Shown here piece after piece: positions 734-26,108 of a stretch of DNA of 32,000 nucleotides (positions are counted from its first letter, which is position 1; each line of letters begins with the position of its first letter). A model generated the notes under the pieces. It saw nothing but the letters and a program-made list of their open reading frames with translations. It ran no database searches and was not told the DNA's origin. This DNA is from Candidatus Saccharimonadota bacterium (GTDB taxonomy: Bacteria > Pseudomonadota > Alphaproteobacteria > CAJXXZ01 > 1604HC): assembly GCF_008189285.1 (NCBI RefSeq), contig NZ_CP043315.1, positions 240,001 through 272,000 of the forward strand, in the 5' to 3' direction. A program made the position numbers and the translations under genes.

Positions 734-802
734 ACTTTTGTTAAATAAAAATAAGCATGCTATAATACAAGATGAATACAAACAAACTATTATTATCAGT
801 TT

Positions 803-1990
803 GTGCAATCTATTGTTGCGACACCAGACCAAGCAATGCTTGATGAGATGAGAGCAGACATAGAAATATATAAAAAAGTTAGAAAAGAAAATGATGAATG
901 TGACAAAGCTATAGCATTGAATAGAAGGCATATTATGCCATTTATGTTTTATATAAGCAGAAAACAGGTTGAAGTAGAAACAAAAGATGAAAAAGGAGCT
1001 ATAACAAAAGCTGAAGAGCATATTATAAATGCAGATAATGCAAAAGATGTTATTTCTTTCTTAACAGGAGATGGCCTTTTCTATAAAATTGATCCAAGTA
1101 ATCCAAATTATGTAGAAAACGAAAATTATAAATTAAGCTATCCATTTGATGCATTGAAATATAATCTTGCACACTATATTGATGTTAATGAATTTAGATT
1201 TGAAAACATACAAAAATGTGCAAGCAGTGGAATATTACATATTAGAGGAAAGGAGCAATACTTTTCTATGAAGTATGTCTCTATGCATGATGACGAAGTG
1301 AAAAAGAGCTTAGGGTGCTTGCAACTTCTTACTCTAAGTGGTTATATAGTTCCTTCACTTGAAAAAGGAGTATTTGAAGGATTGGATAGCTTAAATACTC
1401 TTGGGTTATCATGCAGAAGCCTGCGTTCAATTGATCTTGGAGCATTTAATGGACTAAATAATTTGAAAGAGCTTCACATGTCACGCACCTCATTATCAAG
1501 TTCATTGAAACCAGGATTATTTGCAGGATTAAGCAATTTGATAAAGCTGAATCTATCGCATAATAAATTCACTTCACTTAAACCAGGATTATTTGAAGGA
1601 TTGAGTAGTGTGATAAAACTTAATCTATCAGACAATCAAATCACTGAAATTGAACAAGGGGTATTTGAAGGATTGAGTAGTGTGACAAAACTTAATCTAT
1701 CAGGCTGTAAACTTACTTCACTTGAACCAGGAGCATTTGCAGGATTGAGTAGTGTGACAGACCTTGATCTATCAGACAATCAAATCACTGAAATTGAAAA
1801 AGGAGTATTTGAAGGATTGAGCAGTTTGAAAAGCCTTGCTCTATATGAAAATCAAATCACTGAAATTAAACCAGGAGCATTTGAAGAATTAAGTAGCTTG
1901 ACAGAGCTTAATCTATCACGCAATAAAATCAATTTTTCACCTTTAGAAGCTCTAAGAGAAAGATATCAAAATATAAAAATTGTAAGTTAG
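803..1990 (+). CDS. LRR-family paralog A (head domain, about 8 LRR units, cap); N-terminal signal peptide disrupted by a frameshift
   Basis: 395-aa ORF (GTG at 803) with the family head motifs (DIEIYKKVRKEN, FYKIDPSNPNYVENENYKLSYPFDALKY, YFSMKYVSMHDD) and 24-aa LxxLxLxxNxIxxIxxGxFxGL units. The family-type ATG (MNTNKLLLS) with its TGCTATAAT box is at 772 in a different frame, which stops at about 841-843. Confidence 0.8.
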   Translation: MQSIVATPDQAMLDEMRADIEIYKKVRKENDECDKAIALNRRHIMPFMFYISRKQVEVETKDEKGAITKAEEHIINADNAKDVISFLTGDGLFYKIDPSNPNYVENENYKLSYPFDALKYNLAHYIDVNEFRFENIQKCASSGILHIRGKEQYFSMKYVSMHDDEVKKSLGCLQLLTLSGYIVPSLEKGVFEGLDSLNTLGLSCRSLRSIDLGAFNGLNNLKELHMSRTSLSSSLKPGLFAGLSNLIKLNLSHNKFTSLKPGLFEGLSSVIKLNLSDNQITEIEQGVFEGLSSVTKLNLSGCKLTSLEPGAFAGLSSVTDLDLSDNQITEIEKGVFEGLSSLKSLALYENQITEIKPGAFEELSSLTELNLSRNKINFSPLEALRERYQNIKIVS

Positions 1991-2057
1991 AATCTGCTTT
2001 AAAGTAAATTTTAGATTGAAATTAACAATAAATGATTTAAAAAATTCCAAACAACTA

Positions 2058-2609
2058 TCAAACAGGCATATAAATATACAAAGGCTCTTTTATGCAATTT
2101 GCATGATTTTCATTTATAGAATTCATGAGCTTTCCTGCATTTTGTATTAATTCTATTTTCATATCATTAAGATCATCAATCAAATTCATTTCTTTCTCAT
2201 ATATCATCTTATACTCTTGATCGATATCTAATTCTTTTCGAAATTTTACTTCCCATTTATTGTCAAAAACAAGAAATATATTTCTATTCAGCCTGATTAG
2301 TAAATTCTTAGGATTGTCAAGCAAATCTTCCATATTATGAGATGAAAAATTAATATGCAAAAATACTCTTTTAAGTGCCGATAAAGTGCTATATGCAATG
2401 CGTATGCTAGAAAATGATCCAGGGCCGCTTATAGAATTGAAATGAGACAAATCATTCATAGATAAATCATGTCTTTTCAATAATATTCCAATGCATTCAA
2501 GCAAATTATTTGATGGGGTCTTAACATGCATTTTCCCTGTGAAATCACTACCATGCCATAATTCAATAAAAAATTCTCTTTGTATGAAAAATATATTCAA
2601 CCTATACAC
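2058..2609 (-). CDS. tsaB: tRNA threonylcarbamoyladenosine biosynthesis protein TsaB (YeaZ family), short form
   Basis: 183-aa ORF with the YeaZ/TsaB hallmark SGPGSFSSIRIAYSTLSAL (cf. GPGSFTGVRIGI..A.GLA) and a C-terminal EPLYIY (cf. EPVYLR). Confidence 0.6.
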   Translation of the reverse strand: MYRLNIFFIQREFFIELWHGSDFTGKMHVKTPSNNLLECIGILLKRHDLSMNDLSHFNSISGPGSFSSIRIAYSTLSALKRVFLHINFSSHNMEDLLDNPKNLLIRLNRNIFLVFDNKWEVKFRKELDIDQEYKMIYEKEMNLIDDLNDMKIELIQNAGKLMNSINENHANCIKEPLYIYMPV

Positions 2610-2679
2610 TTAATAATACTAAGCAATTTATGTGCATCAAGCTAGTTTGTATTGGGTTTGTAATATATAATTTGATATT

Positions 2680-5409: not shown

Positions 5410-5639
5410 TTTAGTAGAGGTGATTTTGTAAAGAAATATTAAGATTTAGATATGCTTTTTACAGTTTCATATTTATAATTGCAACTTTGCTTCAATTTGT
5501 GTTTGCATAAACATTTTATTTAAAGATGAATTTCTTCTAAATTAGATGGTTTTTTAAACATTTCCGATCTGATATAAGAAATTATATCATATGATATATA
5601 AATCTTTTTCAAGTATTTAACTTATAAATGTTTCAGGCT

Positions 5640-5857: not shown

Positions 5858-5906
5858 TAGACTATATCATGATTTTGCACATTAATAATTAATCAACAAA
5901 TTAATT

Positions 5907-6899
5907 TTATAAATCAATATTAATATTTGGATATACCTCTTTTAGCTTTACTAAATATTCCTTGGATTTGTAGTCTAATGGATTGTCATTTAAATTTATA
6001 TTTTTCATAATATGAAAATCAATTCCTTTAAATGTCTCTGAATTAATTGAAGTAATTTTATTTCTACATAAATCAAGTTTTATTAAATTTCTTAATCCTG
6101 CAAATACTCCTGAATTTATTGAAGTTATCATGTTATTATCCAATTGAATTTTTTTCAAACTATTCAATCCCTCAAATAATTTTGGCCTAAGTTCAACAAT
6201 CTGGCTATTTTGCATATAAAGCCTTGTTAGGCTATTTAACCCTTTAAACACTCCTTCTTCAAGATCAGTAAACTGACCATTTTGAAGATAAAGCCATTTT
6301 AAGTTATTTAGGCCATCAAATATCCCTGGCTCAATTTCAATCATTTTATTATTCTTTAAATTTAATTCTCTTAAATTATTTAATTGCATATTTGTATCAT
6401 CATCATGCAAGGAAATATAGCGCATATAAAAATACTCTTCTCCAGCTCTTGTTTTGCTACAGCAAACATTTTCAAACTTATCTGCATCTATATATCTTGC
6501 AAATTCATATTTGAATTTGTCAAAAGGATAATTTAATGCATAATTTTTTATTTTTTTATAATATGGATCTTTTGGATCAATCCTATAAACTTCACTTCTG
6601 TTTTTTGTTGTTAAGAAAGAAAGAATAACTTTTTTAATATCTTCTCCTATAGAGCTAATGCTATTGAATATTATTTTATTTATTTCTCTATCTCTTGTTA
6701 TGCGATCTCTTGTTATGCAATCCTGAAGTAGATTATTGTATTTTTTGTTTTTAGACATTTCCTCCATTTCTTCTTTATTTTCTTTTCTAACTTTGTTGTA
6801 AATTATAATATCCTGCCGCATATTATCAGTATATGCATCATATCCTGCTGCTATATATTTCATAAGAATAGATGTCAATAACAATTTATTTACATTCAT
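5907..6899 (-). CDS. LRR-family paralog B (most divergent; about 5 LRR units plus cap)
   Basis: 330-aa ORF. MNVNKLLLTSILM signal-like start; head motifs IIIYNKVRKEN, VYRIDPKDPYY, NYPFDKFKYEFARYID, YFYMRYISLHDD; 24-aa LRR units; cap NPLDYKSKEYL. TGATATAAT lies at 6905-6913, 5 nt upstream of the ATG. Confidence 0.85.
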   Translation of the reverse strand: MNVNKLLLTSILMKYIAAGYDAYTDNMRQDIIIYNKVRKENKEEMEEMSKNKKYNNLLQDCITRDRITRDREINKIIFNSISSIGEDIKKVILSFLTTKNRSEVYRIDPKDPYYKKIKNYALNYPFDKFKYEFARYIDADKFENVCCSKTRAGEEYFYMRYISLHDDDTNMQLNNLRELNLKNNKMIEIEPGIFDGLNNLKWLYLQNGQFTDLEEGVFKGLNSLTRLYMQNSQIVELRPKLFEGLNSLKKIQLDNNMITSINSGVFAGLRNLIKLDLCRNKITSINSETFKGIDFHIMKNINLNDNPLDYKSKEYLVKLKEVYPNINIDL

Positions 6900-6933
6900 G
6901 CTGTATTATATCATAACTTTATTGGATCGCGAA

Positions 6934-6956: not shown

Positions 6957-7296
6957 AAAATAAATTTAAATAAAAAAATTTAGAATTTTATATAATTCTT
7001 TTTTCAGATTTCCTAAACAATGCACTAATTCATTTTCCAAACAATGTACATTTAATATAATTTTAACCATTTGGAATTAATATGTATTTGCTACCAAACA
7101 CACAACCCTGGTAGCTTTTTCATTCATATTCATTTTTCTAATCATTAATATAAGTTTGGTTAAGTGAATAAAACATATTTATTTGTAAATTCATAAAAAA
7201 CTATTGAATAATTGAAATCTCTTTTCTTAATATGATTTTTGTATATGATTCTTTAGAAATTGTATTATTGATTTATCATTTTGGATTTTTAATCAG

Positions 7297-7734
7297 TTAT
7301 AATTTTGAGTATAAATGAGGATCAAAGTATATTATTTTCCCTTTAACATCAATTTCATCTATATTAGGAATTTCCTTCAAATCCGGAGAGAATTCTAATG
7401 AAAAATTATCGGAAGGATCTGTAATATACATCAATGCATTAAATGGAACAGATATATCATATTTTATTCCTGAAAATGTTAAATTCACAGAAAATCCTTG
7501 ATTAGAAATTTCTAGATTTTCAAATTCATTTTGTAACACAATAGTCATAGTTTTTGGGTATTTTTCTTTAAAGCTATCCGGTATTGAAACATTTGGATGT
7601 TTTGTAGAAAAAGCTATGTAAAGATGTTGCTCTCCCTGCAATCCATGCTTTATAACATCTCTAAGAATATCTCTAACAAACAGCCTCAAATATTCTTGTA
7701 ACTTTTTTTTGTAGTTTTGCATCACAAGCCTCAT
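7297..7734 (-). CDS. sspB: ClpXP adaptor SspB, alphaproteobacterial type
   Basis: 145-aa ORF. GLQGEQHLYIAFSTKHPNVSIPDSFKEKYPKTMTIVLQNEFENLEI...FSVNLTFSG....ISVPFNALMYITDPS matches by eye the Caulobacter SspB-alpha pattern GLPGEHHFYITF.T...GV.VP..L...YP.EMTIVLQHQ.WDL.....F.V.L.F.G....L.VP..A...F.DPS. Confidence 0.7.
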   Translation of the reverse strand: MRLVMQNYKKKLQEYLRLFVRDILRDVIKHGLQGEQHLYIAFSTKHPNVSIPDSFKEKYPKTMTIVLQNEFENLEISNQGFSVNLTFSGIKYDISVPFNALMYITDPSDNFSLEFSPDLKEIPNIDEIDVKGKIIYFDPHLYSKL

Positions 7735-7839
7735 AATAAATGTAACAAGTATTTTTCTGTTAGTCTATAATATGAATGATTTAACTAGCAAATACAAACA
7801 AAGTAAAATTTTTATTTTTATATCATTTATAAAATTTGC

Positions 7840-8125
7840 AGAGTTTCTGTTGCTCGGCACTCTACAAGCCGCATGCTTATTTGACTTGCTTATATTTTAA
7901 AATCAATTAAGCGAACGCAAGCTCTGAACTAACATTACTGTTTGCTGCAGATTGCGGGTTAAATACATTATTTGCATTTATTATTTAGTTTATTCCGGTC
8001 ACAACACCGAGTAAAAATCAAATCTTTCAATTCACGTCGATCCTAATTCATCCCCATATGGTGGAGATGTCGGGTTCTGCCCCCGAGTCCGCTAAACCTA
8101 TTAAATTTAATGTTTATTACTATAT
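7840..8125 (-). ncRNA. ssrA: tmRNA gene, circularly permuted (two-piece) alphaproteobacterial form; outer boundaries approximate
   Basis: The minus strand reads ..GCGGAC-TCGGG-GGCAGAA-CCCGA-CATCTCC-ACCA (T-arm, 3' acceptor strand and encoded CCA at 8059-8086), then TAT, then GGGGATGAATTAGGATCGACGTG (5' acceptor strand from 8055, with the conserved GGAT(T)CGACG). GGGGATG pairs with CATCTCC and gives the G3:U70 alanine identity pair. A tag reading frame lies downstream. No second CCA end lies downstream, so the gene order is permuted. Confidence 0.75.
7907..7975 (-). other. tmRNA tag-peptide reading frame: (A)NNVFNPQSAANSNVSSELAFA-stop
   Basis: Minus strand: GCA AAT AAT GTA TTT AAC CCG CAA TCT GCA GCA AAC AGT AAT GTT AGT TCA GAG CTT GCG TTC GCT TAA. 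An alternative in-frame resume codon would give AANSNVSSELAFA (cf. Caulobacter AANDNFAEEFAVAA). The resume point cannot be fixed from sequence alone. Confidence 0.6.
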
Positions 8126-8233
8126 TTACAGACTAGCTGTAACTTTTTAATTCTATATCTTTATATTCATAAATTCAATCAATCACAACAATTCCACTTA
8201 TCAATATATTTCTCATGCAACCTAATAAAGTTA

Positions 8234-8242
8234 TGATATAAT
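8234..8242 (+). promoter_or_regulatory. extended -10 box TGATATAAT, 5 nt upstream of the paralog C ATG (example of the family-wide arrangement)
   Basis: TGATATAAT-gcata-ATG. The same spacing occurs at A 758-766, B 6905-6913(-), relic 13187-13195(-), D 15133-15138(-), E 21718-21723, and F 26007-15(-). Confidence 0.4.
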
Positions 8243-8247
8243 GCATA

Positions 8248-9648
8248 ATGAATATAAACAAATTATTACTATCAACTATAATCATGCAATCTATGATTGC
8301 AGCACCAGATAAAGTAATGCTTGATGAAATGAGAGCAGATATAGAAGTATATCAAAAAGTTAGAGAAGAGAATGATAAGGATCGTGAAATTGTATCGGGA
8401 AATAGAGAGTTTGCTATTTCTTTTATGTTTGATCTAAAAGCGAAAAGCAAGGGTAAAGAAGCATCGTACTTAAAAGATAATATTAATAAAGACATTATGA
8501 ATATTATTGTCTCTTTCTTAATTGGAAACGGTTTTTTCTATAGAATTGATCCAAGCAATCCATATTATGTAGAAAATGAAGATTATAAATTAAGCTATCC
8601 ATTTGATTCATTGAAATACTGTCTTGCAAAATACATTGATGTTAATAATTTTGAATACGTAGATCATGATGGCAGATTTATGAGAAAAGAATACTTTGGC
8701 ATGAAGTATATTTCTATGCATGATGATAAAATAGAAAAAAGTTTGAATGGCTTGATAGAGCTTGATCTATCGCGTAATAAAATCACTTCAATTGAACCAG
8801 GAGCATTTGCAGGATTGAGTAGTTTAACAAGGCTTGATCTATCAGAAAATCAAATCACTTTAATTAAGCCAGGAATATTTGAGGGATTGAGTAGTTTGAC
8901 AGAGCTTGGCCTAGCACACAATCAAATCACTTCACTTGAACCAGGAATATTTGAAGGATTGAGTAGTTTGACAGAGCTTGGTCTAGTATGTCATCAAATC
9001 AAATCACTTGAATCAGGGGCATTTGTAGGATTAAGTAGTTTGACAGAGCTTAGTCTATCAGACAATCAAATCACTTCAATTACAAGAGCATTTGCAGGAT
9101 TGAGTAGTTTGACAAAGCTTAATCTATATAGAAATCAAATTGCTTCAATTGAACCAGGAGCATTTGAAGGATTGGGTAGTTTGACAACGCTTGATTTATC
9201 ATTGAATCAAATCACTTCAATTGAACCAAGAGTATTTGAAGGATTGAGTAGTTTGACAAAGCTTGATTTATCATTGAATCAAATAACTTCAATTGAACCA
9301 GGAGCATTTGCAGGATTGAGCAGCTTAACAGAGTTTTATCTATCGTATAATAAAATCACTTTACTTGAACAAGGAGCATTTGCAGGATTGAGTAGTTTGA
9401 CAAAGCTTAATCTATCAGGCAATCAAATCACTTCACTTGAAAAAGTAGCATTTGAAGGATTGAATAGCTTAACAGAGCTTGATCTATCAAAAAATCAAAT
9501 CATCTCACTTGAATCTGGAGCATTTGAAGGATTGAGTAGTTTAGAATGGATTGGCTTAAGTTGCAATCCTATAGATGATAAATCTAAGGATTTTTGTAAA
9601 TTTAAATTCAATTCCAAACAACTATTAAACAGGCATATAAATATATAA
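8248..9648 (+). CDS. LRR-family paralog C (11 LRR units plus cap; C-terminus runs into a tsaB relic)
   Basis: 466-aa ORF. MNINKLLLSTIIMQSMIAAPD signal-like start, full head, eleven units of consensus LTELxLxxNQITS(L/I)EPGAFAGLSS (one is a 23-residue variant ..ITSITRAFAGLSS), cap NPIDDKSKDF. Confidence 0.9.
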   Translation: MNINKLLLSTIIMQSMIAAPDKVMLDEMRADIEVYQKVREENDKDREIVSGNREFAISFMFDLKAKSKGKEASYLKDNINKDIMNIIVSFLIGNGFFYRIDPSNPYYVENEDYKLSYPFDSLKYCLAKYIDVNNFEYVDHDGRFMRKEYFGMKYISMHDDKIEKSLNGLIELDLSRNKITSIEPGAFAGLSSLTRLDLSENQITLIKPGIFEGLSSLTELGLAHNQITSLEPGIFEGLSSLTELGLVCHQIKSLESGAFVGLSSLTELSLSDNQITSITRAFAGLSSLTKLNLYRNQIASIEPGAFEGLGSLTTLDLSLNQITSIEPRVFEGLSSLTKLDLSLNQITSIEPGAFAGLSSLTEFYLSYNKITLLEQGAFAGLSSLTKLNLSGNQITSLEKVAFEGLNSLTELDLSKNQIISLESGAFEGLSSLEWIGLSCNPIDDKSKDFCKFKFNSKQLLNRHINI

Positions 9649-9743
9649 AGGTTCTTTTATGCAATTTGCATGATTTTCATTTATAGAATTCATAAGCTTT
9701 CCTGCATTTTGTATTAATTCTATTTTCATGTTATTAAGATTAT
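9625..9743 (-). pseudogene. duplicated 3'-terminal fragment of tsaB (about 38 codons)
   Basis: 9611-9743 aligns with 2044-2176 (the 3' end of tsaB plus 14 nt of downstream flank) with about 7 mismatches in 133 nt by eye. No upstream part of the gene is present. Confidence 0.7.
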
Positions 9744-9838: not shown

Positions 9839-9846
9839 AGTCCAAA

Positions 9847-13104: not shown

Positions 13105-13181
13105 CCACACATTTGTTCGCTTGGTGTTGCAATCATAGATTATGCAAGTATAGCTGATAGTAATAGATTATTTATATTCAT
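13105..13181 (-). pseudogene. 5' relic of an LRR-family gene (promoter plus first 13 codons, in-frame stop, rest deleted), in tandem downstream of paralog D
   Basis: Minus strand: TGATATAAT-acaat-ATG AAT ATA AAT AAT CTA TTA CTA TCA GCT ATA CTT GCA TAA TCT ATG ATT GCA ACA CCA.. This is nearly the 5' end of paralog E (MNINKILLSAILMQSMVAAP). Homology ends at the aspS stop codon. Confidence 0.65.
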
Positions 13182-13222
13182 ATTGTATTATATCATACTT
13201 ATTTTGATTTAATAAATATCTA

Positions 13223-15127: not shown

Positions 15128-15462
15128 CTTGTATTATATTATAATTTTTTATTGCTTGCAAATAATATAAAGTATGTTGCAAGTTGATAAATTATGCATT
15201 AATTACTCTATTAAGAGAATTATTTTAAATTTTTGTTATGTTTATTTCTTTTTTCATGCAAATGCAACTGTGTATTTCTATTTAAACAAGAATCTCAAGT
15301 AATTTTATAATTATTTCTTATATTGCTTTAAATACTTTGGATTATATATTTGTTAAAATTTATAATCAATATGCGCATTTTAGGAGAAAATTGCCTATAT
15401 TTTTTTACGCCAAAAAACAAGTCTTTAGATTATTGTTATTTTTAGTTATGATGATTGGATAG

Positions 15463-18400
15463 ATGAACTATACTGTAAAAGATAGAAATAATAACAAAGT
15501 TACCGTTGAAGTGAGAAAGAAATTCTCAAAATCGGGAACGACGGACTCTAAGAAATCTGGAGGATTTAATTCTCATGCCCAAGATAGAAGTAGAGTTTTG
15601 GAAGAAAGCTTTAATAAAGTTAGAGAAAATAGCATAAATAGATTTAGCTCTCCGTTTAGCGCAAAGAAAGAGGTTAATGTTAACAATGATAGCAGAAGCC
15701 AATCTAGCAGCGAAAACAAGAGCCCTGTTAGAAAGAGTCCTGTTAATAACGAAAGCAAGAATTCTTCTACTAGTGAAAATAGAAATTACTCTAATCGCCA
15801 GAAAAGTTATGCTGGAATAGATAGAAGCAAAGCTTATTCTGCTATTGGTAGTGAAAATAGGAGCTATGTTCGTAATAATAACTATGCTGGCCCTGGAAAT
15901 AATAGAAGCTATACTGGTCCTGGTGAAAGAGGGTATGTTGGTAATCGAAATGATTCTAGTTCAAACAGGGTAGATAGAAATAAAAGCTATGTTGGAAATG
16001 ATAGGCCTCCAAGAAAAGTAAATTTTAATCAAGAAGCTATAGGAAAAGTCACTGAAATGAAAAGAGATTTATTGAAAGGAGCTATGGGCAGCAGCTTAAA
16101 TCCTTTGAATAAAATCTTGAATACAGGAGAGAAGAAAACAGAATTCAGAACTTATACTCCAAACAGATCTCAAGGATCATTTAACAGAAATAGACCTGAT
16201 TCTGGAGGCAGATTTGGTCCTGGAAATAACAGATTCAGCAGCGGAGGCGGAGGATTTGGCGGAAACAGATTTAACAACAATGGCGGCGGATTCGGTGGAA
16301 ATCGATTTAACAACAATGGCGGCGGAAATGGATTTGGTGGAAATCGATTCAATAATAGCGGCGGAGGCGGCGGATTTGGTGGAAATCGATTCAATAACAA
16401 TAGTGGAGGCGGATTTAATAGGCCTGGCAATTTCCATAGAAAAGATGATAGCAGGCCATCATTTAGACCTGGCTCTGAATCTAGATTAAATGCTTTCAAA
16501 TTATCAAAAGGAAGAGCATTTATACCATCTGATAAGAAGCCATTCCAGAAATCATTTTCTTCATTTGCTCCATCTTTTATGTCCAAGTCAAGCGAAGGAA
16601 GAAAGTTTGCTACTAAAAAGAAGTTTTTCAAGCAGGATGGCGATAAAAAGCAAAATAGATTTAGACAAGAAGAGGGTCCATCTGAAGAGAGATTTTCTCA
16701 TCAATTCCTTGGAAAGATTAATTCTGCTGAGGATATAGAAATTGATTCAAACATGTACTTTAACAAGAGATTTAGAAATTCACAAAGAGTTAAAGATGCT
16801 GTAGTAAGAAATGTAGAAATTCCTTTTGAAGGAATCGATCCTATGAATCTTGCTAATCAAATGGCGGTTAAGTTGAATGTTCTTCATGCAAAATTAGAAA
16901 GCCTTGATCTATCTAAATCTGATATTATAGAACCTGAAATGGCTTTGATTATTGTTGAAGAAATGGGTCATAAAGCTGAAGTTATGACCAATAAAGATAT
17001 GGAAATTATTCCAGATGTAGGGAATGAAGATGATTATGAGCCTAGATGTCCAATTGTTACAATAGTTGGTCACGTTGATCATGGAAAAACATCCTTGCTT
17101 GATGCGTTAAGAAAAACAAATATAGTTTCTGGGGAATCAGGCGGAATTACTCAAGCAATTGGTGCATCTCAAGTATTCTTAAATGAGAATAAATTTGTTA
17201 CTTTTGTTGACACTCCTGGACATGAAGCGTTCACCTCTATGAGAGTTAGAGGAGTTGAAATTACTGATATAGTTGTTTTGGTTATTGCTGCAGATGACGG
17301 AATTAAAGATCAAACAGTAGAAGCTATTCAGCATATACAGAATGCAAAGGTTCCATTTATTGTTTGTTACACAAAAATTGATAAGCCAGATTCTAATATT
17401 GATAATATAAGGCAAAAATTACTTATTCATAACATAGTTGTGGAGTCTATGAGTGGAGAAATTCTAGAAGTAGAAGTTTCTGCAATGAAAAACAAGAACT
17501 TGGACAAGCTTTTGGAGATGTTGTTATTGCAAGCAGAAATGTTAGAGTTAAGAGGTAATAATAAGTGCAAAGCAAGTGGTATTGTGATTGAATCTAGATT
17601 AGATAGGCATAAAGGTCCAGTTGCAACTGTTTTGATTAAAAATGGTAAGCTTGATTACGCTGATCACTTTATTGTTGGTGATACATATGGAAAAATTAGA
17701 AATATGACATTGCCAAATGATAAAAAAACAAAATCTGCAACTACCTCTATTCCTGTAGAAATTATGGGTTTGAATGATGTTCCAAGTCCAGGAGATTTGT
17801 TAATTGAAGTTGATAGCGAAAAAGAAGCTAGATCGATTTCAGAATATAGAGTAAATTTGAAGAAGAGAGTTGTTGTTAAAAAGAAGGAGGTCGATATCTT
17901 GGCATATTTCAATGAAGAAAAAGCGAAAAATATTAACTTAATTGTAAAAGCTGATGTTGCGGGGTCTTTGGAAGCAATTGTTGCTGCTGTATCAAAGATT
18001 GAGTACGAAAGCATTGATATTAATGTTGTAGGAAAAGGAAATGGAGCCTTAACAGATAGTGATGTATTATTAGCTAAAACAAGTGATTCTACTATTATAT
18101 GCTTTAAAGTTAATATTCCATCTTCAGTTGCTGGTTTGGCAAAAGAGCATAATATTAAAATCAAAAGATTTTCTGTTATATACGAGCTAATAGATTATGT
18201 TAAAAGTATGGCTGAAGGAATCCTCGCTCCAACAGAAGAAGAGAAAATTCTTGGAACTGCAGTTATTAAAGAAATTTTTGTTAAAAAGAAAATTGGAACT
18301 ATTGCAGGATGTGGAGTTGAAGAAGGTATTATTAAGGTCAAGACAAAGGGAAGAGTTATCAGGAATGGAAAAGAAATTTACATTGGAGATATATTGAGCT

Positions 18401-18546
18401 TGAAGCAAAGACAATACGATAAAGTTGAAATTCCAGCTAACCAAGAATGTGGTATTATCATGGAAGGATTCACTGATTTCCATATTGGAGACCAAATTGA
18501 AAGCTTTATAATTAAAAATATCGCTAAAAAAGATATAGACGAATAA
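15463..18546 (+). CDS. infB: translation initiation factor IF-2 with an extended low-complexity N-terminal region
   Basis: 1027-aa ORF. G domain IVGHVDHGKTSLLDALR, DTPGHEAF, TKIDK; C-terminal IF-2 domains (VKADVAGSLEAI, GCGVEEG). The first ~480 aa or so are S/N/R/G-rich with internal repeats. Confidence 0.95.
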   Translation: MNYTVKDRNNNKVTVEVRKKFSKSGTTDSKKSGGFNSHAQDRSRVLEESFNKVRENSINRFSSPFSAKKEVNVNNDSRSQSSSENKSPVRKSPVNNESKNSSTSENRNYSNRQKSYAGIDRSKAYSAIGSENRSYVRNNNYAGPGNNRSYTGPGERGYVGNRNDSSSNRVDRNKSYVGNDRPPRKVNFNQEAIGKVTEMKRDLLKGAMGSSLNPLNKILNTGEKKTEFRTYTPNRSQGSFNRNRPDSGGRFGPGNNRFSSGGGGFGGNRFNNNGGGFGGNRFNNNGGGNGFGGNRFNNSGGGGGFGGNRFNNNSGGGFNRPGNFHRKDDSRPSFRPGSESRLNAFKLSKGRAFIPSDKKPFQKSFSSFAPSFMSKSSEGRKFATKKKFFKQDGDKKQNRFRQEEGPSEERFSHQFLGKINSAEDIEIDSNMYFNKRFRNSQRVKDAVVRNVEIPFEGIDPMNLANQMAVKLNVLHAKLESLDLSKSDIIEPEMALIIVEEMGHKAEVMTNKDMEIIPDVGNEDDYEPRCPIVTIVGHVDHGKTSLLDALRKTNIVSGESGGITQAIGASQVFLNENKFVTFVDTPGHEAFTSMRVRGVEITDIVVLVIAADDGIKDQTVEAIQHIQNAKVPFIVCYTKIDKPDSNIDNIRQKLLIHNIVVESMSGEILEVEVSAMKNKNLDKLLEMLLLQAEMLELRGNNKCKASGIVIESRLDRHKGPVATVLIKNGKLDYADHFIVGDTYGKIRNMTLPNDKKTKSATTSIPVEIMGLNDVPSPGDLLIEVDSEKEARSISEYRVNLKKRVVVKKKEVDILAYFNEEKAKNINLIVKADVAGSLEAIVAAVSKIEYESIDINVVGKGNGALTDSDVLLAKTSDSTIICFKVNIPSSVAGLAKEHNIKIKRFSVIYELIDYVKSMAEGILAPTEEEKILGTAVIKEIFVKKKIGTIAGCGVEEGIIKVKTKGRVIRNGKEIYIGDILSLKQRQYDKVEIPANQECGIIMEGFTDFHIGDQIESFIIKNIAKKDIDE
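16225..16430 (+). repeat. in-frame 36-45 bp repeats encoding (G)3-5FGGNRFNN(N/S), 4 to 5 copies, within infB
   Basis: The translation reads GGGGFGGNRFNNNGGGFGGNRFNNNGGGNGFGGNRFNNSGGGGGFGGNRFNNNSGGGFNRPGNF. Confidence 0.85.
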
Positions 18547-19633: not shown

Positions 19634-20971
19634 ATGAAATATAAACAAATAATTTTATCTATGATTTGCATGTTAAGCAGCGTAAATTCTGTTTTTGAAA
19701 AGCCAAAGCCATTTCAAAATACTGTAAAAGAATCTCAAGGAGATGGAAAAGATATAGCTGTCTTTTGCAATATGAATCTTATTCCAGATGATAAAGTTTT
19801 TATTGCAAAATTCATAAAAGCTTGGTCTGATAAATTGCATAATCTGAATGGAAGTATTGTTTTAAGAAATCTAAATAGCAATATAGATTTGCCTGATCTT
19901 GGCTGTGCTGAGTTGGTCATTTTTGATTATTTGCCAGAAAATAGTGGGGAAATGGGTTCATCTAATAATTTTTATAAGTATGTTGAGAATACATTGAGAG
20001 AACTTCAATACAAATCAGTTGTTTTTGCTAATAATATAGCTCCATTTGATATAGAATCTATGATTAACAGTGAATCTTTTAAATATTATAGGTTAGGATT
20101 CACCTTATCTCATGAATTTGATTGCATGGAATTTTGCTTATCTATGATAGATCTTACCAATAAATTTGATGATTTGAATGATACATATTTTAAAGCGATG
20201 CGCTATAATGAATCAATGCTCATTAAGTCCTTATTGAAAAAAGGCGTTGCCATGATAAATGAAAAAAATCATAAGTATAAACGCGTATGCAAAAAAGAGG
20301 GTGTTTTCAAATGCACTGATACTGATGGTGAAGTTGTAAGAAAATGCATGATTTCCTCTGATGAGAATGAGAAATTAATTTATGCAAAAGAATTATTCAC
20401 AATTAATGGAAACAAATCTGTTATTAATGTGCTTGCTAAGAATGATTCATGGATCGAAGAAATGTGTAAGCAGGGCATGCTAGAAACTGTCATAGTTGAT
20501 GATGAATTGTCTCTAAAAGCAAAGTTTGAAAAAATTACACAACAGTATGAAAATATGTTTTTATGTTATTTAGAAAATATTTTATTAAAATTTACTTATG
20601 AGCAAAAAGCAGAAGAAACATCTAAAAAAATATTAAAAATGAAAGATGAAAATGGCTTGATTGATAAAAGAGAGCATAGCAAAATATTAGATGAAGATAT
20701 GCATGATATATCTGAAATTATGATTCCTTTTAAGAAAGAGCTTGCGCTTATATTTGATGAGAAATATGGAGATAAGGTTGATATTGATTCCTTTTCTTAT
20801 CATTCTGATGAAGTAAAAGGAAAATTTTTTGAAGAATTAAAACGTATTGTAGCTGATATTATTGAAAGCATGAAGAAGTTAGCCAACTTACAAAAAAATT
20901 TAATTTTAGTTTCTGTATCAGATATAGATAACAAAATTAGCTTTATTGATAAAGTAATTGCTGAGCTTTAA
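19634..20971 (+). CDS. orphan hypothetical protein with a predicted signal peptide; Cys-containing N-terminal half, K/E-rich C-terminal third
   Basis: 445-aa ORF. MKYKQIILSMICMLSSVNSVF looks like a Sec signal. I recognise no family. It is the only long ORF in a 3.1-kb stretch that is otherwise non-coding or decayed. Confidence 0.6.
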   Translation: MKYKQIILSMICMLSSVNSVFEKPKPFQNTVKESQGDGKDIAVFCNMNLIPDDKVFIAKFIKAWSDKLHNLNGSIVLRNLNSNIDLPDLGCAELVIFDYLPENSGEMGSSNNFYKYVENTLRELQYKSVVFANNIAPFDIESMINSESFKYYRLGFTLSHEFDCMEFCLSMIDLTNKFDDLNDTYFKAMRYNESMLIKSLLKKGVAMINEKNHKYKRVCKKEGVFKCTDTDGEVVRKCMISSDENEKLIYAKELFTINGNKSVINVLAKNDSWIEEMCKQGMLETVIVDDELSLKAKFEKITQQYENMFLCYLENILLKFTYEQKAEETSKKILKMKDENGLIDKREHSKILDEDMHDISEIMIPFKKELALIFDEKYGDKVDIDSFSYHSDEVKGKFFEELKRIVADIIESMKKLANLQKNLILVSVSDIDNKISFIDKVIAEL

Positions 20972-21268: not shown

Positions 21269-21645
21269 TTATGAAAAAGATGTTTTGATGTTATTTAGAA
21301 AATATTTTACTTTCAATTTATAAAATAATTCCTGGAGATTTGCAATATATAATTTGAATGAGATTATATGCGGACATGTCTTTCTTAGTTCTTCTAAATA
21401 ATTTTTAGATTTATCATTAATAGCGTTTCGATCTAAATTAAGTATTGTCAAACTGCTTAATTCTTATAAGCATTCTCAGTTCGAATGAAGTTATTTTGTT
21501 ATGATGCGGATCAATTGCTTCTAAATTCAACCCTTCAAATATTTCTGATTTAGTTGAAGTAATTTGATTATATGAAAGGTCAAGCATTGTTGCATTATTC
21601 ATACTTTCTTCTGTTTTATCATAATGTATAGAAATATTTAATTTA
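21269..21645 (-). pseudogene. decayed LRR-family relic (head deleted, about 3 LRR units, frameshift, cap)
   Basis: The minus strand translates ISIHYDKTEESMNNATMLDLSYNQITSTKSEIFEGLNLEAIDPHHNKITSFE.. (the ISMHDD tail of the head plus LRR units). After a stop and frame change it reads SSLTILNLDRNAINDKSKNYLEELRK (family cap). The ORF-track entry 21269-21451 is its 3' part. Confidence 0.65.
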
Positions 21646-21728
21646 CAATTTTTCTTTTTGCATAATTTATAAATTTACAATATGGTTTATATTATTTATA
21701 AACAACAAAATTATAGGTATAATACAGT

Positions 21729-22770
21729 ATGAATATAAATAAAATATTACTATCAGCTATACTTATGCAATCTATGGTTGCAGCACCAGATGAAGTAATG
21801 ATTGATATGATGAAGGAAGACATAGAAGTATATCAAAAAGTTAGAGAAGAGAATGATGCAAATCATCAAGCTATTGCATTGAACAGAAAGAGTGTTCTTC
21901 CATTTATGTTTTGTGCAAGCAAAAAACAAGTTGCAATAGAAACAAAAGATGAAAGAGGGGTCATAACAAAAACTGAAGAGATTATTATATGCGAAGATAA
22001 TGCAAAAGATGCAATTTCTTTTTTGATAGGAAAAGATCTTTTCTATAGAATTGACCCAAGTGATCCAAATTATGTAGAAAACGAAGAATATAAGCTGAGC
22101 TATCCATTTGATGCATTGAAGTATAGTCTTGCAAGCTATATTGATGTTAATAATTTTGAATACGTATATCATAATGGCAGATCTATGAAAAAAGAATACT
22201 TTGGCATGAAGTATATCTCTATGCATGATGATGAAACAAAAGAAAGCATGAAAGGTTTGGAAAAACTTGATTTGCGTAATGCGTTCATCACCTCACTTAA
22301 ACCAGGAACATTTGTAGGATTAAGCTCTCTTGAATCAATTCTACTATATGGAAATCAAATCACTTCAATTGAACCAGGAGCATTTGTGGGGTTGGATAGT
22401 TTGAAACAAATTGACTTAAGGGCCAATAAAACCACCTCACTTAAACCAGGAACATTTGTAGGATTAAGCTCTCTTGAATCAATTCTACTATATGGAAATC
22501 AAATCACTTCAATTGAACCAGGAGTATTTGTGGGGTTGGATAGTTTGAAACAAATTGACTTAAGGGCCAATAAAACCACCTCACTTAAACCAGGAACATT
22601 TGTGGGATTAAGCTCTCTTGAATCAATTCTACTATAGTGGAAATCAAATCACTTCAATTGAACCAGGATCATTTGAAAAATTTAGCAATTTAACAAATCT
22701 TGATTTGGATTTCAATGCTCTAGATGATGAATCTAATAATTATTTAATGAAATCATTTACAAGAATATAA
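21729..22770 (+). pseudogene. LRR-family paralog E, interrupted by a 1-nt insertion (premature TAG at 22635-22637)
   Basis: A 302-aa ORF ends at ctactaTAGtggaaatc, where the two preceding repeat copies read ctactatatggaaatc. The +1 frame from 22639 continues GNQITSIEPGSFEKFSNLTNLDLDFNALDDESNNYLMKSFTRI-stop (22768-22770), which restores a normal unit plus the family cap. Confidence 0.8.
22289..22640. repeat. 144-bp tandem repeat (two LRR units per copy), about 2.4 copies, about 99% identical
   Basis: Copies start at 22289, 22433 and 22577 (cacctcacttaaaccagg..). I see one or two mismatches between copies (gagcattt versus gagtattt; tgtagga versus tgtggga). Confidence 0.85.
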
Positions 22771-22877
22771 AAATCTAAAAATTAGATTGTAAAATGTAAA
22801 TTCTAGTGTTTATTTTAATCAAATAAGTCGTAAATTTATTAATTTATAAAAAATTTCTTTCTATGCAAATAATTTAA

Positions 22878-24422: not shown

Positions 24423-24441
24423 TCATTATAGAGAAATACAA

Positions 24442-26001
24442 TTAATTGCTTTCTTGATATAAAATTATAATACTTGTATCTTTGTCTTTTATATTTTTCA
24501 AACTTTGTTTAACTTTGTCATCTAAGTTGTTAGACATAATATTTAGCTCTTGCATATTTTTAAAATTTTTCATTTGAGATATTTTTTTTTCAATGCTTTG
24601 TATTTGATTTTCTTGCAAATAAAGCTTTATCAAACTACTTAATCCTGTAAATGATTTTAGTTTAATTGAAGTGATTTTATTTCCTGATAGATCAAGCTTT
24701 ATCAAACTACTCAATCCTGCAAATGCTCCTGGTTTAATTTCAGCGATTTTATTTCCTAATAGATTAAGCTCTGTCAAACTACTTAATCCTGCAAATACTC
24801 CCGGTTCAATTGAAGTGATTTGATTTTCTGGTAGAAAAAGCTCTGTCAAACTACTCAATCCTGCAAATACTCCCGGTTCAATTGAAGTGATTTGATTTTC
24901 TGGTAGAAAAAGCTCTGTCAAACTACTCAATCCTGCAAATGCTACTTTTTCAAGTGAAGTGATTTGATTCCATGATAGATCAAGCTTTGTCAAACTACTC
25001 AATCCTTCAAATACTCCTGGTTCAAGTGAAGCAATTTGATTGTCTGATAGATCAAGCTTTATCAAACTACTCAATCCTTCAAATGCCCCTGGTTCAAGTG
25101 AAGTGATTTTATTGCTTATCAGAAAAAGCTCTGTCAAACTACTCAATCCTTCAAATGCCCCTGGTTCAAGTGAAGTGATTTTATTTTTTGATAGATCAAG
25201 CGCTGTCAAACTTTTCAATTCTTCAAATGCTACTTTTGCGATCGAAATGATTTCATTGCTTTTAAGATTAAGCTCTTTCAACTTACCTAATCCTGCAAAT
25301 GCTCCTGATTCAAGTGAAGTGATTTGATTGCCTGATAGATCAAGCTTTGTCAAACTACTCAATCCTGCAAATGCCCCTGGTTTAATTTCAGTGATTTTAT
25401 TACACAATAGATAAAGCTTTGTCAAACTACTCAATCCTGCAAATACTCCTGGTTCAAGTGAAGTGATTTGATTGTCTGGTAGACTAAGCTCTGTCAAACT
25501 ACTCATACCTCTTTTCATTTTATCATCATGCATAGAAATATACTTCATGCCAAAGTATCCTTTTCTCATAGATATGCCATCATGATCTACGTATTCAAAA
25601 TTATTAACATCAATGTATTTTGCAAGATAGTATTTCAATGAATCAAATGGATAGCTTAATTTATAATCTTCATTTTCTACATAATATGGATTGCTTGGAT
25701 CAATTCTATAGAAAAAACCGTTTCCAATTAAGAAAGAAACAATAATATTCATAATGTCTTTATTGATATTATCTTTTAAGTACGATACTTCTTTACCTTT
25801 GCTTTTCGCTTTTAGATCAAACATAAAAGAAATAGCAAACTCTCTATTTCCCGATACAATTTCACGATCCTTATCATTCTCTTCTCTAACTTTTTGATAT
25901 ACTTCTATGTCTTCCTTCATCATATCAAGCATTACTTTATCTGGCGCTGCAACAATAGATTGCATGATTATAGTTGATAGCAATAATTTGTTTATATTCA
26001 T
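24442..26001 (-). CDS. LRR-family paralog F (13 LRR units plus cap)
   Basis: The ORF track starts at 26016 (MIECIM..). The family start MNINKLLLSTIIMQSIVAAPD is the ATG at 26001, preceded by the family box TGATAGAAT-gcata. Full head about 98% identical to C, thirteen units, cap NNLDDKVKQSL. Confidence 0.9.
   Translation of the reverse strand: MNINKLLLSTIIMQSIVAAPDKVMLDMMKEDIEVYQKVREENDKDREIVSGNREFAISFMFDLKAKSKGKEVSYLKDNINKDIMNIIVSFLIGNGFFYRIDPSNPYYVENEDYKLSYPFDSLKYYLAKYIDVNNFEYVDHDGISMRKGYFGMKYISMHDDKMKRGMSSLTELSLPDNQITSLEPGVFAGLSSLTKLYLLCNKITEIKPGAFAGLSSLTKLDLSGNQITSLESGAFAGLGKLKELNLKSNEIISIAKVAFEELKSLTALDLSKNKITSLEPGAFEGLSSLTELFLISNKITSLEPGAFEGLSSLIKLDLSDNQIASLEPGVFEGLSSLTKLDLSWNQITSLEKVAFAGLSSLTELFLPENQITSIEPGVFAGLSSLTELFLPENQITSIEPGVFAGLSSLTELNLLGNKIAEIKPGAFAGLSSLIKLDLSGNKITSIKLKSFTGLSSLIKLYLQENQIQSIEKKISQMKNFKNMQELNIMSNNLDDKVKQSLKNIKDKDTSIIILYQESN
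24767..24910. repeat. 72-bp tandem duplication (2 copies, 1 mismatch) inside paralog F
   Basis: 24767-24838 and 24839-24910 differ at one base (acttaatcc versus actcaatcc). They encode LTELFLPENQITSIEPGVFAGLSS twice. Confidence 0.9.
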
Positions 26002-26108
26002 TATGCATTCTATCATAACTTTATTAAGTTAGAAGAGAGATTAATTAATTGCGTTATCTGTCTAAATGCGTTTCAAATTGATTAAATTTACACTCCTTTA
26101 ATTATAAT

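Follow-up and report, generated by a model that had tools for sequence, protein, structure and literature searches.

Expanded sets of repeat proteins are known from several host-restricted bacteria. Amoebophilus asiaticus carries LRR, ANK and TPR/SEL1 sets and the diplonemid endosymbionts carry LRR sets, and both are read as host interaction. LRRs are mentioned throughout the diplonemid endosymbiont genomes (George et al.), and all such repeat-protein genes of A. asiaticus are expressed (PMC8831229). The LRR family analysed here, from Candidatus Cytomitobacter indipagum, resembles these repertoires but differs in that it has one orphan head, resides in a 628-kb genome, has its own promoter for each copy and bears direct traces of gene conversion.

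Internalins of Listeria are also alike: a Sec signal (in the present family a Sec-like N-terminus) and an N-terminal cap domain precede an LRR array whose length varies, each genome has many paralogs, and the concave LRR face binds host receptors, as it may do in C. indipagum. An internalin is built from LRRs of 22 residues, a helical cap whose fold is known and an Ig-like inter-repeat region, and carries an LPXTG or GW anchor. Membership of the C. indipagum family among the internalins was rejected, because its units have 24 residues, a profile of the head matched no PDB chain (internalins included) at E <= 10 and Pfam revealed neither an IR domain nor an anchor. The best sequence and structure matches of the LRR part are typical LRR ectodomains (LGR4/5, IGFALS, TLR3/13, Nogo receptor, chondroadherin and lamprey VLRs); phmmer gave E = 1.6e-66 for LGR4 and 4e-66 for IGFALS, and Foldseek gave probability 1.00 and rmsd 0.5-1.1 Å over ~90 residues to VLR, NgR and chondroadherin. 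The concave strand positions hold most of the variability, which is also the case in VLRs. Unlike these ectodomains, the family is bacterial, has a Sec-like leader and lacks Cys-rich LRRNT/LRRCT caps, and the matches never reach the head. The eukaryotic LRRNT/LRRCT-capped class was rejected, since no paralog matched PF01462 or PF01463 at E <= 0.01.

The closest database relatives of the LRR array are PEP-CTERM-anchored LRR proteins of uncultured environmental bacteria (top hits P0125-P0139), which are 45-59% identical over the repeat region and have units such as NQITSIESGDFxGL in common with it. Their N-termini are unrelated and their C-termini bear VPEP...RRR sorting signals, whereas the C. 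indipagum arrays are preceded by the orphan head and followed by a short anchorless cap. The MgPa/RepMP and vlp/vsp families of Mycoplasma are alike in that much of a tiny genome is taken up by a single family of exported proteins (in C. indipagum probably exported) whose genes recombine, with partial copies or relics and gene conversion. The Mycoplasma families are lipoproteins or adhesins for antigenic variation against the immune system, whereas the C. indipagum copies lack a lipobox and the host is a protist. No expression-site/archive arrangement is evident, because every full copy has its own promoter. Compared with published work, the new features are the head, which is an orphan restricted to one species, the promoter-plus-start cassette of each copy, gene conversion and ongoing gain and loss. 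In our view the family is real and takes a well-known theme of host interaction in a fairly unusual direction.

Members of the family and their promoters

AspS encoded in the window (the whole stretch of 32,000 nucleotides analysed) is 100% identical to an NCBI protein of C. indipagum (628,024-bp contig). C. indipagum is a Holosporaceae endosymbiont of a diplonemid, a marine protist, and its genome of 628 kb with 30% GC agrees with the small AT-rich genome expected from the letters alone. The window contains six LRR paralogs (A-F) and three relics. All six had been proposed in the original prediction and were found where it placed them, as tblastn, the six-way alignment and Pfam LRR_8 agree; heads compared copy to copy by tblastn against the window gave E = 1e-24 to 1e-112. 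The family was said to occupy ~8.8 kb or ~27% of the window, and merged blastn matches cover 8,740 bp (27.3%). The prediction of at least three relics was borne out at 13110-13181, 21365-21665 and 2035-2057. Each paralog consists of a -10 box, a short Sec-like N-terminus, a head of ~145 aa, 6-19 LRRs by our recount (5-18 had been given) and a short cap. The features are as follows.

758-1990, +: paralog A (QEK37957.1), annotated from GTG 803; 8 LRRs, B-like cap
2035-2057, +: relic, C-type 3' tail downstream of A, reading ..KNSKQLSNRHINI
2035-2176, +: duplicated segment of 144 bp, 93% identical to 9600-9743
5907-6913, -: paralog B (QEK37960.1, 330 aa), intact; 6 LRRs; cap NPLDYKSKEYL
8234-9648, +: paralog C (466 aa), intact; 12 LRRs; cap NPIDDKSKDF
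9649-9743, +: duplicated tsaB-like 3'-end fragment, carried along with the 3' end of C
13110-13195, -: relic, 5' end of a further paralog; -10 box TGATATAAT at 13195-13187, ATG at 13181
13223-15138, -: paralog D (634 aa), intact; longest array, 19 LRRs; cap NALDEQSKDCL
21365-21665, -: relic, LRR array and cap, frameshifted and with stops, reading ..LDLSYNQITSTKSEIFEGL.. and ..LNLDRNAINDKSKNYLEELRK..
21718-22770, +: paralog E (QEK37969.1, 302 aa as annotated), with an A/E-subtype head
24442-26015, -: paralog F (519 aa from ATG 26001), intact; 14 LRRs; cap NNLDDKVKQSL

As predicted, the copies sit between unrelated housekeeping genes. The neighbours are rpe, a tsaB-like gene, leuS, sspB, tmRNA, tRNAs, murG, aspS, infB, class-I lysS, pbp1a, lepA and pheT, and D is placed in the aspS-infB gap. 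Four of the six copies are intact (B, C, D and F; 330-634 aa) and two are frameshifted (A and E). Paralog A had been given a start at 772 or 803 and, like all copies, a Sec-like signal. A 5-bp deletion within the signal peptide breaks this signal, and the frame from ATG 772 is a stub that ends after 23 codons. The GenBank start of A is GTG 803, and the annotated protein has no signal. The head and 8 LRRs of A are otherwise intact, and A is probably a recently inactivated copy. In E, a +1 insertion at ~22636 leads to a TAG, and the last LRR and the cap (22639-22770) are readable in the next frame. B is the most divergent copy (head identity ~40%), and the heads of F and C are 92% identical. The conserved promoter and start place the true start of F at ATG 26001, not at 26016. 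The relic at 13110-13181 (-) is a signal-peptide fragment, MNINNLLLSAILA*SMIATPSEQM, with an in-frame stop.

The box TATGATATAATACA, located 5 nt before the ATG, is conserved in all six genes and one relic. It is kept even in B, despite only ~40% protein identity. The box reads TGATATAAT in B (6913-6905) and C (8234-8242) and TGATAGAAT in F (26015-26007). A has an extended -10 box, TGcTATAAT, at 758-766 with the ATG at 772; TATAAT is found at 21718-21723 in E and at 15138-15133 in D, where TTGCAA lies 17 nt upstream. A promoter scan placed those of A and D among its best sigma-70 matches. The scan gave 89 hits across the region versus 98 expected from shuffled sequence, which is no excess, and the promoter argument therefore depends on conservation alone. 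Because the -10 box is only 5 nt from the ATG, transcription would start at or next to the ATG and the mRNAs are probably leaderless.

Repeat array, head and N-terminus

Pfam LRR_8 (PF13855) matched all six paralogs with E = 2.8e-50 to 5.3e-196 (168-635 bits against a cutoff of 27). TRF detected a 72-bp period in the arrays, and AlphaFold pLDDT was 80-92 over the LRR part. There are 57 units of exactly 24 residues, in which L1, L4, L6, N9, I11, F19 and L22 are conserved at 88-100%. Their consensus, LxxLxLxxNxIxxIxxGxFxGL, indicates that the family belongs to the 'typical' (T) LRR subclass (LxxLxLxxNxLxxLxxxxFxxLxx), and the best PDB matches of the LRR part are ectodomains of this class. Two other LRR classes were rejected. 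BspA-like/TpLRR proteins have units of 23 rather than 24 residues, and LRR_5 matched five of six paralogs (not B) with E = 7e-11 to 2e-57, far below LRR_8. NEL/IpaH-SspH-SlrP proteins and YopM have units of 20-22 residues, a C-terminal NEL E3-ligase domain (in the IpaH class) and an N-terminal T3SS signal, and the paralogs have no C-terminal domain and a Sec-like N-terminus. The cap, N(P/A/N)(L/I)D..SK..L, is 20-35 aa long with at most one Cys, and no domain lies C-terminal to the array. Unit entropy peaks at positions 3, 5, 7 and 8 (2.5-3.5 bits) versus <=1.9 bits on the convex side. Between-unit pN was 0.48 at concave, 0.24 at other and 0.10 at scaffold positions, and dN/dS was 1.3 at concave, 1.1-1.3 at all non-scaffold and 0.26 at scaffold positions, values that compare repeat with repeat, not orthologs. 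By these values, the repeats vary most on the concave LRR face. A non-scaffold dN/dS near 1 is as compatible with relaxed constraint as with diversifying selection.

The head is present in every copy and is always N-terminal. The six-way head alignment has 40 invariant columns, which include the motifs of the original prediction; among the invariant residues are D, K, R, E, N, H, D and D as well as 9 Tyr and 4 Phe. The central 45 residues are entirely different between subtypes. The last of these motifs, MKYISMHDD, fits the pattern LxxLxLxxN. It may represent the first LRR strand in degenerate form, a reading that the structure model neither supports nor refutes. Searches of the head against Pfam, NCBIfam, PHROG and PADLOC gave no match better than E ~0.01 and none common to more than three of the six copies. 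A head profile search of 1.84e9 (1.84 billion) protein representatives gave four matches, all from C. indipagum, and a head scan of GTDB genomes and JGI metagenomes gave no hits. Foldseek with the head gave a best E of 2.2 with probability 0.04. This fold test is weak because the head model is of low confidence (AlphaFold pLDDT 40-66). By these searches the head is found in no organism searched other than C. indipagum. Thus, the earlier suggestion that the head lies outside named domain families stands in the profile searches, PDB included, and structure prediction with Foldseek also gave no known family, although at low confidence. Head dN/dS between copies is 0.32-0.69, and pairs with the old copy B have a head pN of ~0.40 versus a pS of ~0.65, which indicates that the heads are under purifying selection. 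Decay of all copies had been named as evidence against a role in the host. Two of the six copies and the three relics are decaying; however, because four copies are intact and the heads appear to be under purifying selection, the family is not decaying as a whole.

A Sec signal is recognised by a positive n-region, a hydrophobic h-region of 7-15 residues and small residues at -3/-1. Crude hydropathy analysis revealed that the N-termini of C, D, E, F and P0156 have K5 followed by 15-16 uncharged residues ending in I/V-A-A-P, with a 12-residue hydropathy of 1.9-2.1 (~2.0). They resemble the PBP1a anchor and the orphan orf445 and differ from every cytoplasmic neighbour. The signal is weaker in B, which has a Lys (K14) inside the hydrophobic core, and is destroyed in A. 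Therefore, the Sec-like signal claimed for all paralogs applies to C, D, E and F, but is lost in A and interrupted by Lys in the core of B. The cleavage site is uncertain because of this Lys in B and because Pro follows the AA motif. Past the N-terminus, neither a membrane or cell-wall anchor nor a known secretion motif was found in the paralogs by Pfam and sequence. Published signal-peptide counts (Phobius/SignalP) are 106 for C. indipagum versus 60 for C. primus, which is only indirectly consistent with export of the family. The C. primus locus includes a secretin gene, and a reduced T2SS/T4P has been reported for the genus Cytomitobacter (bioRxiv 10.1101/719211).

Gain, exchange and loss of copies

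Beyond base 2057, the segment 2035-2176 belongs to the tsaB-like gene (2058-2609, -), of which it forms the 3' end. The 144-bp repeat of this segment in 9600-9743 marks a segmental duplication that took flanking DNA. A tract of 180 nt is identical between C and D, inside heads whose dS is 0.24, and indicates gene conversion. The array of E contains a 144-bp tandem repeat (2.7 copies, 97% matches) and thus expanded recently. Sequence comparison shows that segmental duplication places new copies in the gaps that separate housekeeping genes, that gene conversion moves sequence between copies, that tandem LRR duplication changes array size and that frameshifts lead to the loss of copies.

C. primus has murG, aspS and infB side by side, with an aspS-infB gap of only 150 bp; the 21.7-kb region around these genes contains no head and no LRR. 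Downstream of lepA-pbp1a, neither C. primus nor either of two related MAGs has a member of the family, and none was found in two further 22-kb MAG loci. The proposal that the family is expanded agrees with the published LRR_8 matches, 22 in C. indipagum versus 3 in its sister species C. primus (George et al.). These counts give LRR_8 totals without a description of the head. C. indipagum also has the most pseudogenes (16) of four published genomes.

Possible roles of the family

We lean towards the reading that this is a species-restricted birth-and-death family in C. indipagum, whose members are probably Sec-exported LRR binding proteins facing the host. The N-terminus would direct Sec export into the periplasm, from where the folded protein would pass on to the bacterial surface or into the host cytosol, most plausibly through the reduced T2SS/T4P-secretin apparatus of the genus. 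The concave LRR face, the part most variable between repeats, would bind host proteins, perhaps those of mitochondria or the cytoskeleton. For the head, we propose an N-terminal module peculiar to this lineage that would serve in capping, anchoring or recognition for export, rather than a known enzyme. It is possible, but rather doubtful, that the head is a new fold born in the C. indipagum lineage, a dedicated module for export or host-organelle targeting, and that together with the leaderless cassette, gene conversion and change of repeat number it makes up a diversity-generating binding repertoire under diversifying selection. If so, this would be a diversifying repertoire functionally like VLR and internalin sets, in a class of genomes usually seen as static and only eroding.

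Several other roles were weighed against host-facing binding. The proteins may be exported but retained in the envelope, as periplasmic or outer-membrane-associated scaffolds that serve the cell's own envelope, for example by organising peptidoglycan or transporters. A Sec-type N-terminus alone delivers only to the periplasm, no second-step secretion signal or anchor is recognisable, and two copies lie by cell-wall genes (C near murG, F adjoining pbp1a). We regard this as unlikely, since a housekeeping role should be conserved, whereas the head was found neither in the sister species nor in any database searched, copy number is 22 versus 3 between sister species, and adjacency to murG and pbp1a is not kept in C. 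primus. Hypervariability of the concave face and copy turnover are also atypical of housekeeping scaffolds. A role between bacteria or in the modified T6SS, for example as T6SS-linked adaptors or effectors directed against a co-resident symbiont, would fit a review that names a second symbiont in the same host strain. However, no T6SS gene is found within the window and none of the six copies adjoins VgrG or an immunity gene. T6SS cargo is not known to carry Sec signals, whereas the family N-termini are Sec-like, and this role seems very improbable.

About as improbable is that the head itself acts, as an enzyme or toxin domain of a new kind, and that the LRR array only targets it. The 40 invariant columns, polar and charged ones included, persist across copies with dS >1 in a head that every copy carries at its N-terminus, and candidate catalytic residues (H-D-D, D-x-x-x-Y-x-K-V-R-x-E-N and Y-P-F-D) are among them. 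However, no enzyme family matched by sequence or fold, the many invariant aromatic residues suggest a structural core, the HDD motif is within the segment that fits the LRR strand pattern, and the central 45 residues differ wholly between subtypes. The family might also be a mostly non-functional, recombination-prone cassette, spread by segmental duplication under weak selection in a small population and now decaying. This would account for the two frameshifted copies and three relics, a head dN/dS of 0.3-0.7 that is high by free-living standards, a non-scaffold LRR dN/dS of ~1.1-1.3 and the 16 pseudogenes of the genome. We consider it improbable, because four frames of 330-634 aa are open in a 30% GC genome where stops arise easily and the old B pairs keep pN well below pS. 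Furthermore, the promoter box and the invariant head columns are retained across copies with dS >1, and the scaffold positions of the repeats are strongly conserved (dN/dS 0.26).

Architecture and members of the family

Candidatus Cytomitobacter indipagum carries a cassette made of a hydrophobic N-terminus, an orphan head and an array of typical leucine-rich repeats (LRRs); within this one species its copies have multiplied by duplication, exchanged sequence by conversion, changed in length and in part been lost. A tblastn search of the window with three head queries found all six paralogs of the original prediction in place (E = 1e-24 to 1e-112); the observation is confirmed, far beyond chance expectation. 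Blastn-merged family DNA comes to 8,740 bp, in agreement with the expected share of about 27%, and the three relics are also present. The family span had been drawn to 26016; paralog F starts at 26001. Copies (promoter regions included) and relics are as follows.

758-1990 (+), paralog A, promoter region 758-771, 8 LRR units, QEK37957.1
5907-6913 (-), paralog B, promoter region 6900-6913, 6 LRR units, QEK37960.1
8234-9648 (+), paralog C, promoter region 8234-8247, 12 LRR units
13223-15138 (-), paralog D, promoter region 15128-15138, 19 LRR units
21718-22770 (+), paralog E, promoter region 21718-21728, about 6 LRR units, QEK37969.1
24442-26015 (-), paralog F, promoter region 26002-26015, 14 LRR units
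13110-13195 (-), relic, promoter (region 13182-13195) and signal-peptide stub with a stop
21365-21665 (-), relic, LRR and C-terminal cap, frameshifted
2035-2057, relic, C-type 3' tail

The repeat numbers correct the earlier range of 5-18. A, B and E are labelled in GenBank only as 'leucine-rich repeat domain-containing protein'. Two copies are disrupted. The ATG at 772 had been offered as a start of A, but its frame ends after 23 codons, with a 5-bp deletion inside the signal peptide. E is present at 21729-22770 as described, but its frame is broken by a +1 insertion that makes a TAG at 22635-22637; its last repeat and cap can be read one frame over. Outside the window, C. indipagum has P0156 (QEK38072.1, 326 aa), with a head and seven LRRs, and P0004 (QEK37952.1), a 74-aa fragment encoded a few genes upstream of A. 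The copies are interleaved with core genes, and housekeeping neighbours from rpe to pheT were identified: rpe, a tsaB-like ORF, leuS, sspB, tmRNA, two tRNAs, murG, aspS, infB, class-I lysS, pbp1a, lepA and pheT.

In C, D, E, F and P0156, K5 is followed by 15-16 uncharged residues ending in (I/V)(V/I)AAP, and Kyte-Doolittle hydropathy over 12 residues peaks at 1.9-2.1. B has a Lys within the hydrophobic core, and A has lost the segment. This N-terminus resembles the membrane anchor of PBP1a and the N-terminus of orf445, a 445-aa orphan of the window, and is unlike those of all cytoplasmic neighbours. No lipobox is present in the family N-termini. A Sec signal is a plausible reading of these features.

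The LRR array is confirmed by Pfam LRR_8 at 168-635 bits (cutoff 27). It contains 57 units of exactly 24 residues, with the consensus LTELDLSxNQITSIEPGAFEGLSS, and the family belongs to the 'typical' class of the LRR superfamily. The best solved relatives of this part are LGR4, IGFALS, TLR13/3, LINGO-1 and the Chlorobium Roco LRR, and its best structural matches are VLRs, the Nogo receptor and chondroadherin. The closest database sequences (45-59% identity) are PEP-CTERM-anchored LRR proteins of uncultured bacteria, whose N-termini are unrelated to those of the family. Pfam found no LRRNT, LRRCT, NEL, Ig-like region or anchor in the family proteins. The family would work like the internalins but lacks their defining features, as it lacks those of IpaH/YopM effectors, BspA/TpLRR proteins and cysteine-capped eukaryotic LRR ectodomains. 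It would also work like the LRR and 'eukaryotic-like protein' repertoires of intracellular bacteria such as Amoebophilus (PMC8831229).

An orphan head domain

The head belongs to no named family, as had been suspected. It has no match of weight in Pfam, NCBIfam, PHROG or PADLOC, and its profile matched no PDB chain at E <= 10. When the profile was searched against all 1.84 billion cluster representatives, four proteins were found (E, A, B and P0004), all from C. indipagum. We relied on this exhaustive search, since a word-index query of 5.8 billion proteins with the C head returned no match, C itself included; the family is apparently missing from that index. Head patterns gave 213 matches in GTDB (one genome per species) and 513 in JGI metagenomes, none of which was confirmed by tblastn.

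All head motifs named in the original prediction were reproduced in the six-copy alignment, in which 40 head columns are invariant. One of them, MKYISMHDD, is there in sequence but matches the pattern LxxLxLxxN, and could represent a degenerate first repeat rather than a head motif. The heads fall into at least four subtypes (C/D/F, A/E, B and P0156) with conserved flanks in common, but the central ~45 residues are completely different. Structure prediction and Foldseek, proposed earlier for the head, found no match. AlphaFold2 with the six-sequence alignment gave pLDDT 51 for the head alone and 64.6 overall for the head plus four LRRs (head 40-66, LRRs 80-92). The best Foldseek E with the head was 2.2, and the low confidence of the model makes its matches meaningless; matches to the longer model cover only about 90 LRR residues. 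The secondary-structure prediction for the head is consistent, though of low confidence: after a long N-terminal helix come two or three short ones, with a beta-hairpin spanning FYRIDPSNPYYVEN and a further helix at SLKYCLAKY. As a clean orphan domain with paralog-level conservation, the head suits structure determination.

Two other, unrelated orphans were compared with the head.

19634-20971 (+), orf445, WP_172618990.1, NCBI hypothetical, 445 aa, signal-like N-terminus MKYKQIILSMICMLSSVNSV
7296-8729 (-) of the C. primus locus L047, p477, signal-bearing orphan of the sister species, 477 aa

Residues 156-179 of orf445 (FTLSHEFDCMEFCLSMIDLTNKFD) and 267-293 of p477 (EYKILNYPFENMHNYNNNAFIDNIYFE) align to one head segment, YKLSYPFD..YID..F (YKLSYPFDSLKYCLAKYIDVNNFE). 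Homology was rejected, as hhalign gave E ~0.1 and a probability of 0.5% for each, which is not significant. The two alignments could be due to chance or be the remnant of a shared module that evolves very rapidly. orf445 has no Pfam match; its only match, to the NCBIfam model of the chlamydial inclusion protein InaC, is sub-threshold (E = 0.016, 15 bits with the cutoff at 200). orf445 may likewise be an exported protein specific to this lineage.

Promoter-start cassette, turnover and species restriction

A TATGATATAATACA-like sequence lies immediately upstream of all copies, the divergent B and the relic at 13181 among them. Its -10 hexamer stops 5 nt short of the ATG, an extended TGn is frequent, and no Shine-Dalgarno sequence is present upstream of the family copies. 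The A and D sites rank among the best sigma-70 matches in a region-wide promoter scan. Because that scan was not enriched over shuffled sequence (89 matches vs 98 expected), the promoter evidence is the conservation of the -10 box across paralogs, not the match score. With the usual spacing from -10 box to start, transcription is expected to start at or beside the A of the ATG, and we infer from this arrangement that the family mRNA is leaderless. Since the box is conserved in every copy, the duplicated unit consists of promoter, start and ORF. In several window genes, all family members included, a TATAAT box ends just 2-9 nt upstream of the ATG; such boxes also precede leuS (2680), orf445 (19634) and lysS (24422). 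No recognisable Shine-Dalgarno was seen for any gene in the window. Leaderless or near-leaderless mRNAs may be common across this genome. The family is a natural test case of leaderless expression cassettes in an AT-rich genome apparently without Shine-Dalgarno sequences.

Duplication, conversion, two fresh frameshifts and three relics make this a birth-and-death family. The C and D heads share an exact tract of 180 nt, while dS is 0.24 elsewhere in the heads; such a tract is very unlikely to have arisen at this divergence without gene conversion. The E array contains a 144-bp tandem duplication (97% matches). A further 144-bp segment occurs twice (2035-2176 and 9600-9743, 93% identity) and joins a C-type gene end to a tsaB-like 3' end, so the duplication copied flanking DNA. 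We saw no sign of a transposase, of terminal inverted repeats or of target duplications and rejected a mobile-element origin; the sole duplicated flank is a piece of an adjacent gene, which speaks for segmental duplication.

AspS (11357-13099) shares 100% identity with the C. indipagum protein, 77% with that of C. primus and 63% with that of Nesciobacter abundans, and LepA is 80% identical to its C. primus counterpart. C. primus has murG, aspS and infB side by side, and its aspS-infB gap is 150 bp vs 2.4 kb here, where D and a relic lie. No head or LRR was found in this 21.7-kb C. primus locus. Where F sits downstream of lepA-pbp1a, other genes are found in C. primus and in two related MAGs of 620 kb. 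The family is absent from two further 22-kb MAG loci, which carry their own Pfam-less orphans in the same housekeeping-gene gaps. Gaps around murG, aspS and infB hold different Pfam-less orphans in related Cytomitobacter-like genomes, and they seem to be genus-wide hotspots for lineage-specific genes.

L048, 11861-14391
L049, 12035-12923 and 16481-21575
L047 (C. primus), 7296-8729

Both the organism and its LRR surplus had been published before, and the counts listed by George et al. (bioRxiv 10.1101/719211) are as follows.

Published counts in four symbionts (bioRxiv 10.1101/719211)
C. indipagum: LRR_8 22, signal peptides 106, pseudogenes 16
C. primus: LRR_8 3, signal peptides 60, pseudogenes 7
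N. abundans: LRR_8 0, signal peptides 44, pseudogenes 8
S. namystus: LRR_8 3, signal peptides 63, pseudogenes 9

Neither George et al. nor the 2025 Holosporales review describes the common head, the cassette structure or the turnover, and the review does not mention LRRs. What is new is a head restricted to one species, a cassette of promoter and start, and active turnover in a genome of only 628 kb (contig 628,024 bp). Part of the surplus of 'signal peptide' and 'hypothetical' genes published for C. indipagum is probably due to this family. Strongly reduced genomes of endosymbionts are generally portrayed as static and losing DNA; in this one, copies of a single putatively exported family are still being made, reshuffled and lost, and the sister species is without that family.

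Possible function and genomic setting

We consider it somewhat probable that these are exported, host-binding LRR proteins made from a self-promoting, species-restricted cassette. A leaderless mRNA would be made from the cassette, Sec would export the protein, and onward passage would take it to the surface or the host cytosol. The likeliest route would be the reduced T2SS/T4P-secretin system that the genus is reported to have (bioRxiv 10.1101/719211); a secretin gene lies within the C. primus locus. The head could be a lineage-specific module for capping, export recognition or anchoring, and the variable concave LRR face would bind host proteins. Unit entropy peaks at positions 3, 5, 7 and 8 (2.5-3.5 bits), which are solvent-exposed concave strand positions, and is <= 1.9 bits at convex positions. 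Between units, pN is 0.48 at concave, 0.24 at other non-scaffold and 0.10 at scaffold positions, and dN/dS is 1.3, 1.1 and 0.26, respectively. This pattern is expected of a diversifying binding surface and is also compatible with relaxed constraint, the comparison being of repeats and not of orthologs.

A mostly non-functional expansion driven by drift is unlikely in our judgement. Head dN/dS among copies is 0.32-0.69, and the pairs of B with other copies, which are the oldest, have a pN (~0.40) clearly lower than pS (~0.65), so the head has been under purifying selection, relaxed as usual in endosymbionts. We give the same low weight to a role within the bacterial envelope. LRR proteins occur beside T6SS effectors and throughout these genomes (George et al., bioRxiv 10.1101/719211); T6SS-linked or inter-bacterial use of this family is nevertheless improbable, with the Sec-like leader of its proteins and the lack of T6SS genes in the window both standing against it. 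Slightly less probable still, and the least likely of these readings, is a head that is a novel enzyme targeted by its LRRs. As host-binding proteins, the family members would be concrete candidate molecules for the long-open question of how diplonemid symbionts interact with their host. These symbionts adjoin mitochondria and cannot be cured from the host.

The two-piece tmRNA and the GC content of ~30% in the window fit a Holosporaceae endosymbiont of the diplonemid Diplonema aggregatum. This permuted tmRNA (tag ANNVFNPQSAANSNVSSELAFA; 7816-8154 (-)) lies directly upstream of sspB (7297-7734 (-)), which encodes an adaptor for tagged proteins, and both are kept despite genome reduction. The tsaB-like ORF (2058-2609 (-), 183 aa, GTG start) has a weak partial TsaD/TsaB-family match below cutoff (E = 0.0044) and may be a degenerate tsaB; a dead copy of its C-terminus lies downstream of C. 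infB (15463-18546 (+)) has an unusually long low-complexity N-terminal extension, in which 36/42-bp tandem repeats (16246-16416) encode GGGFGGNRFNN repeats that recall RGG/FG-type sequences; InfB is 1027 aa here vs 996 aa in C. primus. Between pbp1a and the paralog F promoter there is a perfect 22-bp tandem duplication, TTAATTTCCCAAAAATCCAATT (26108-26154, 2.1 copies).
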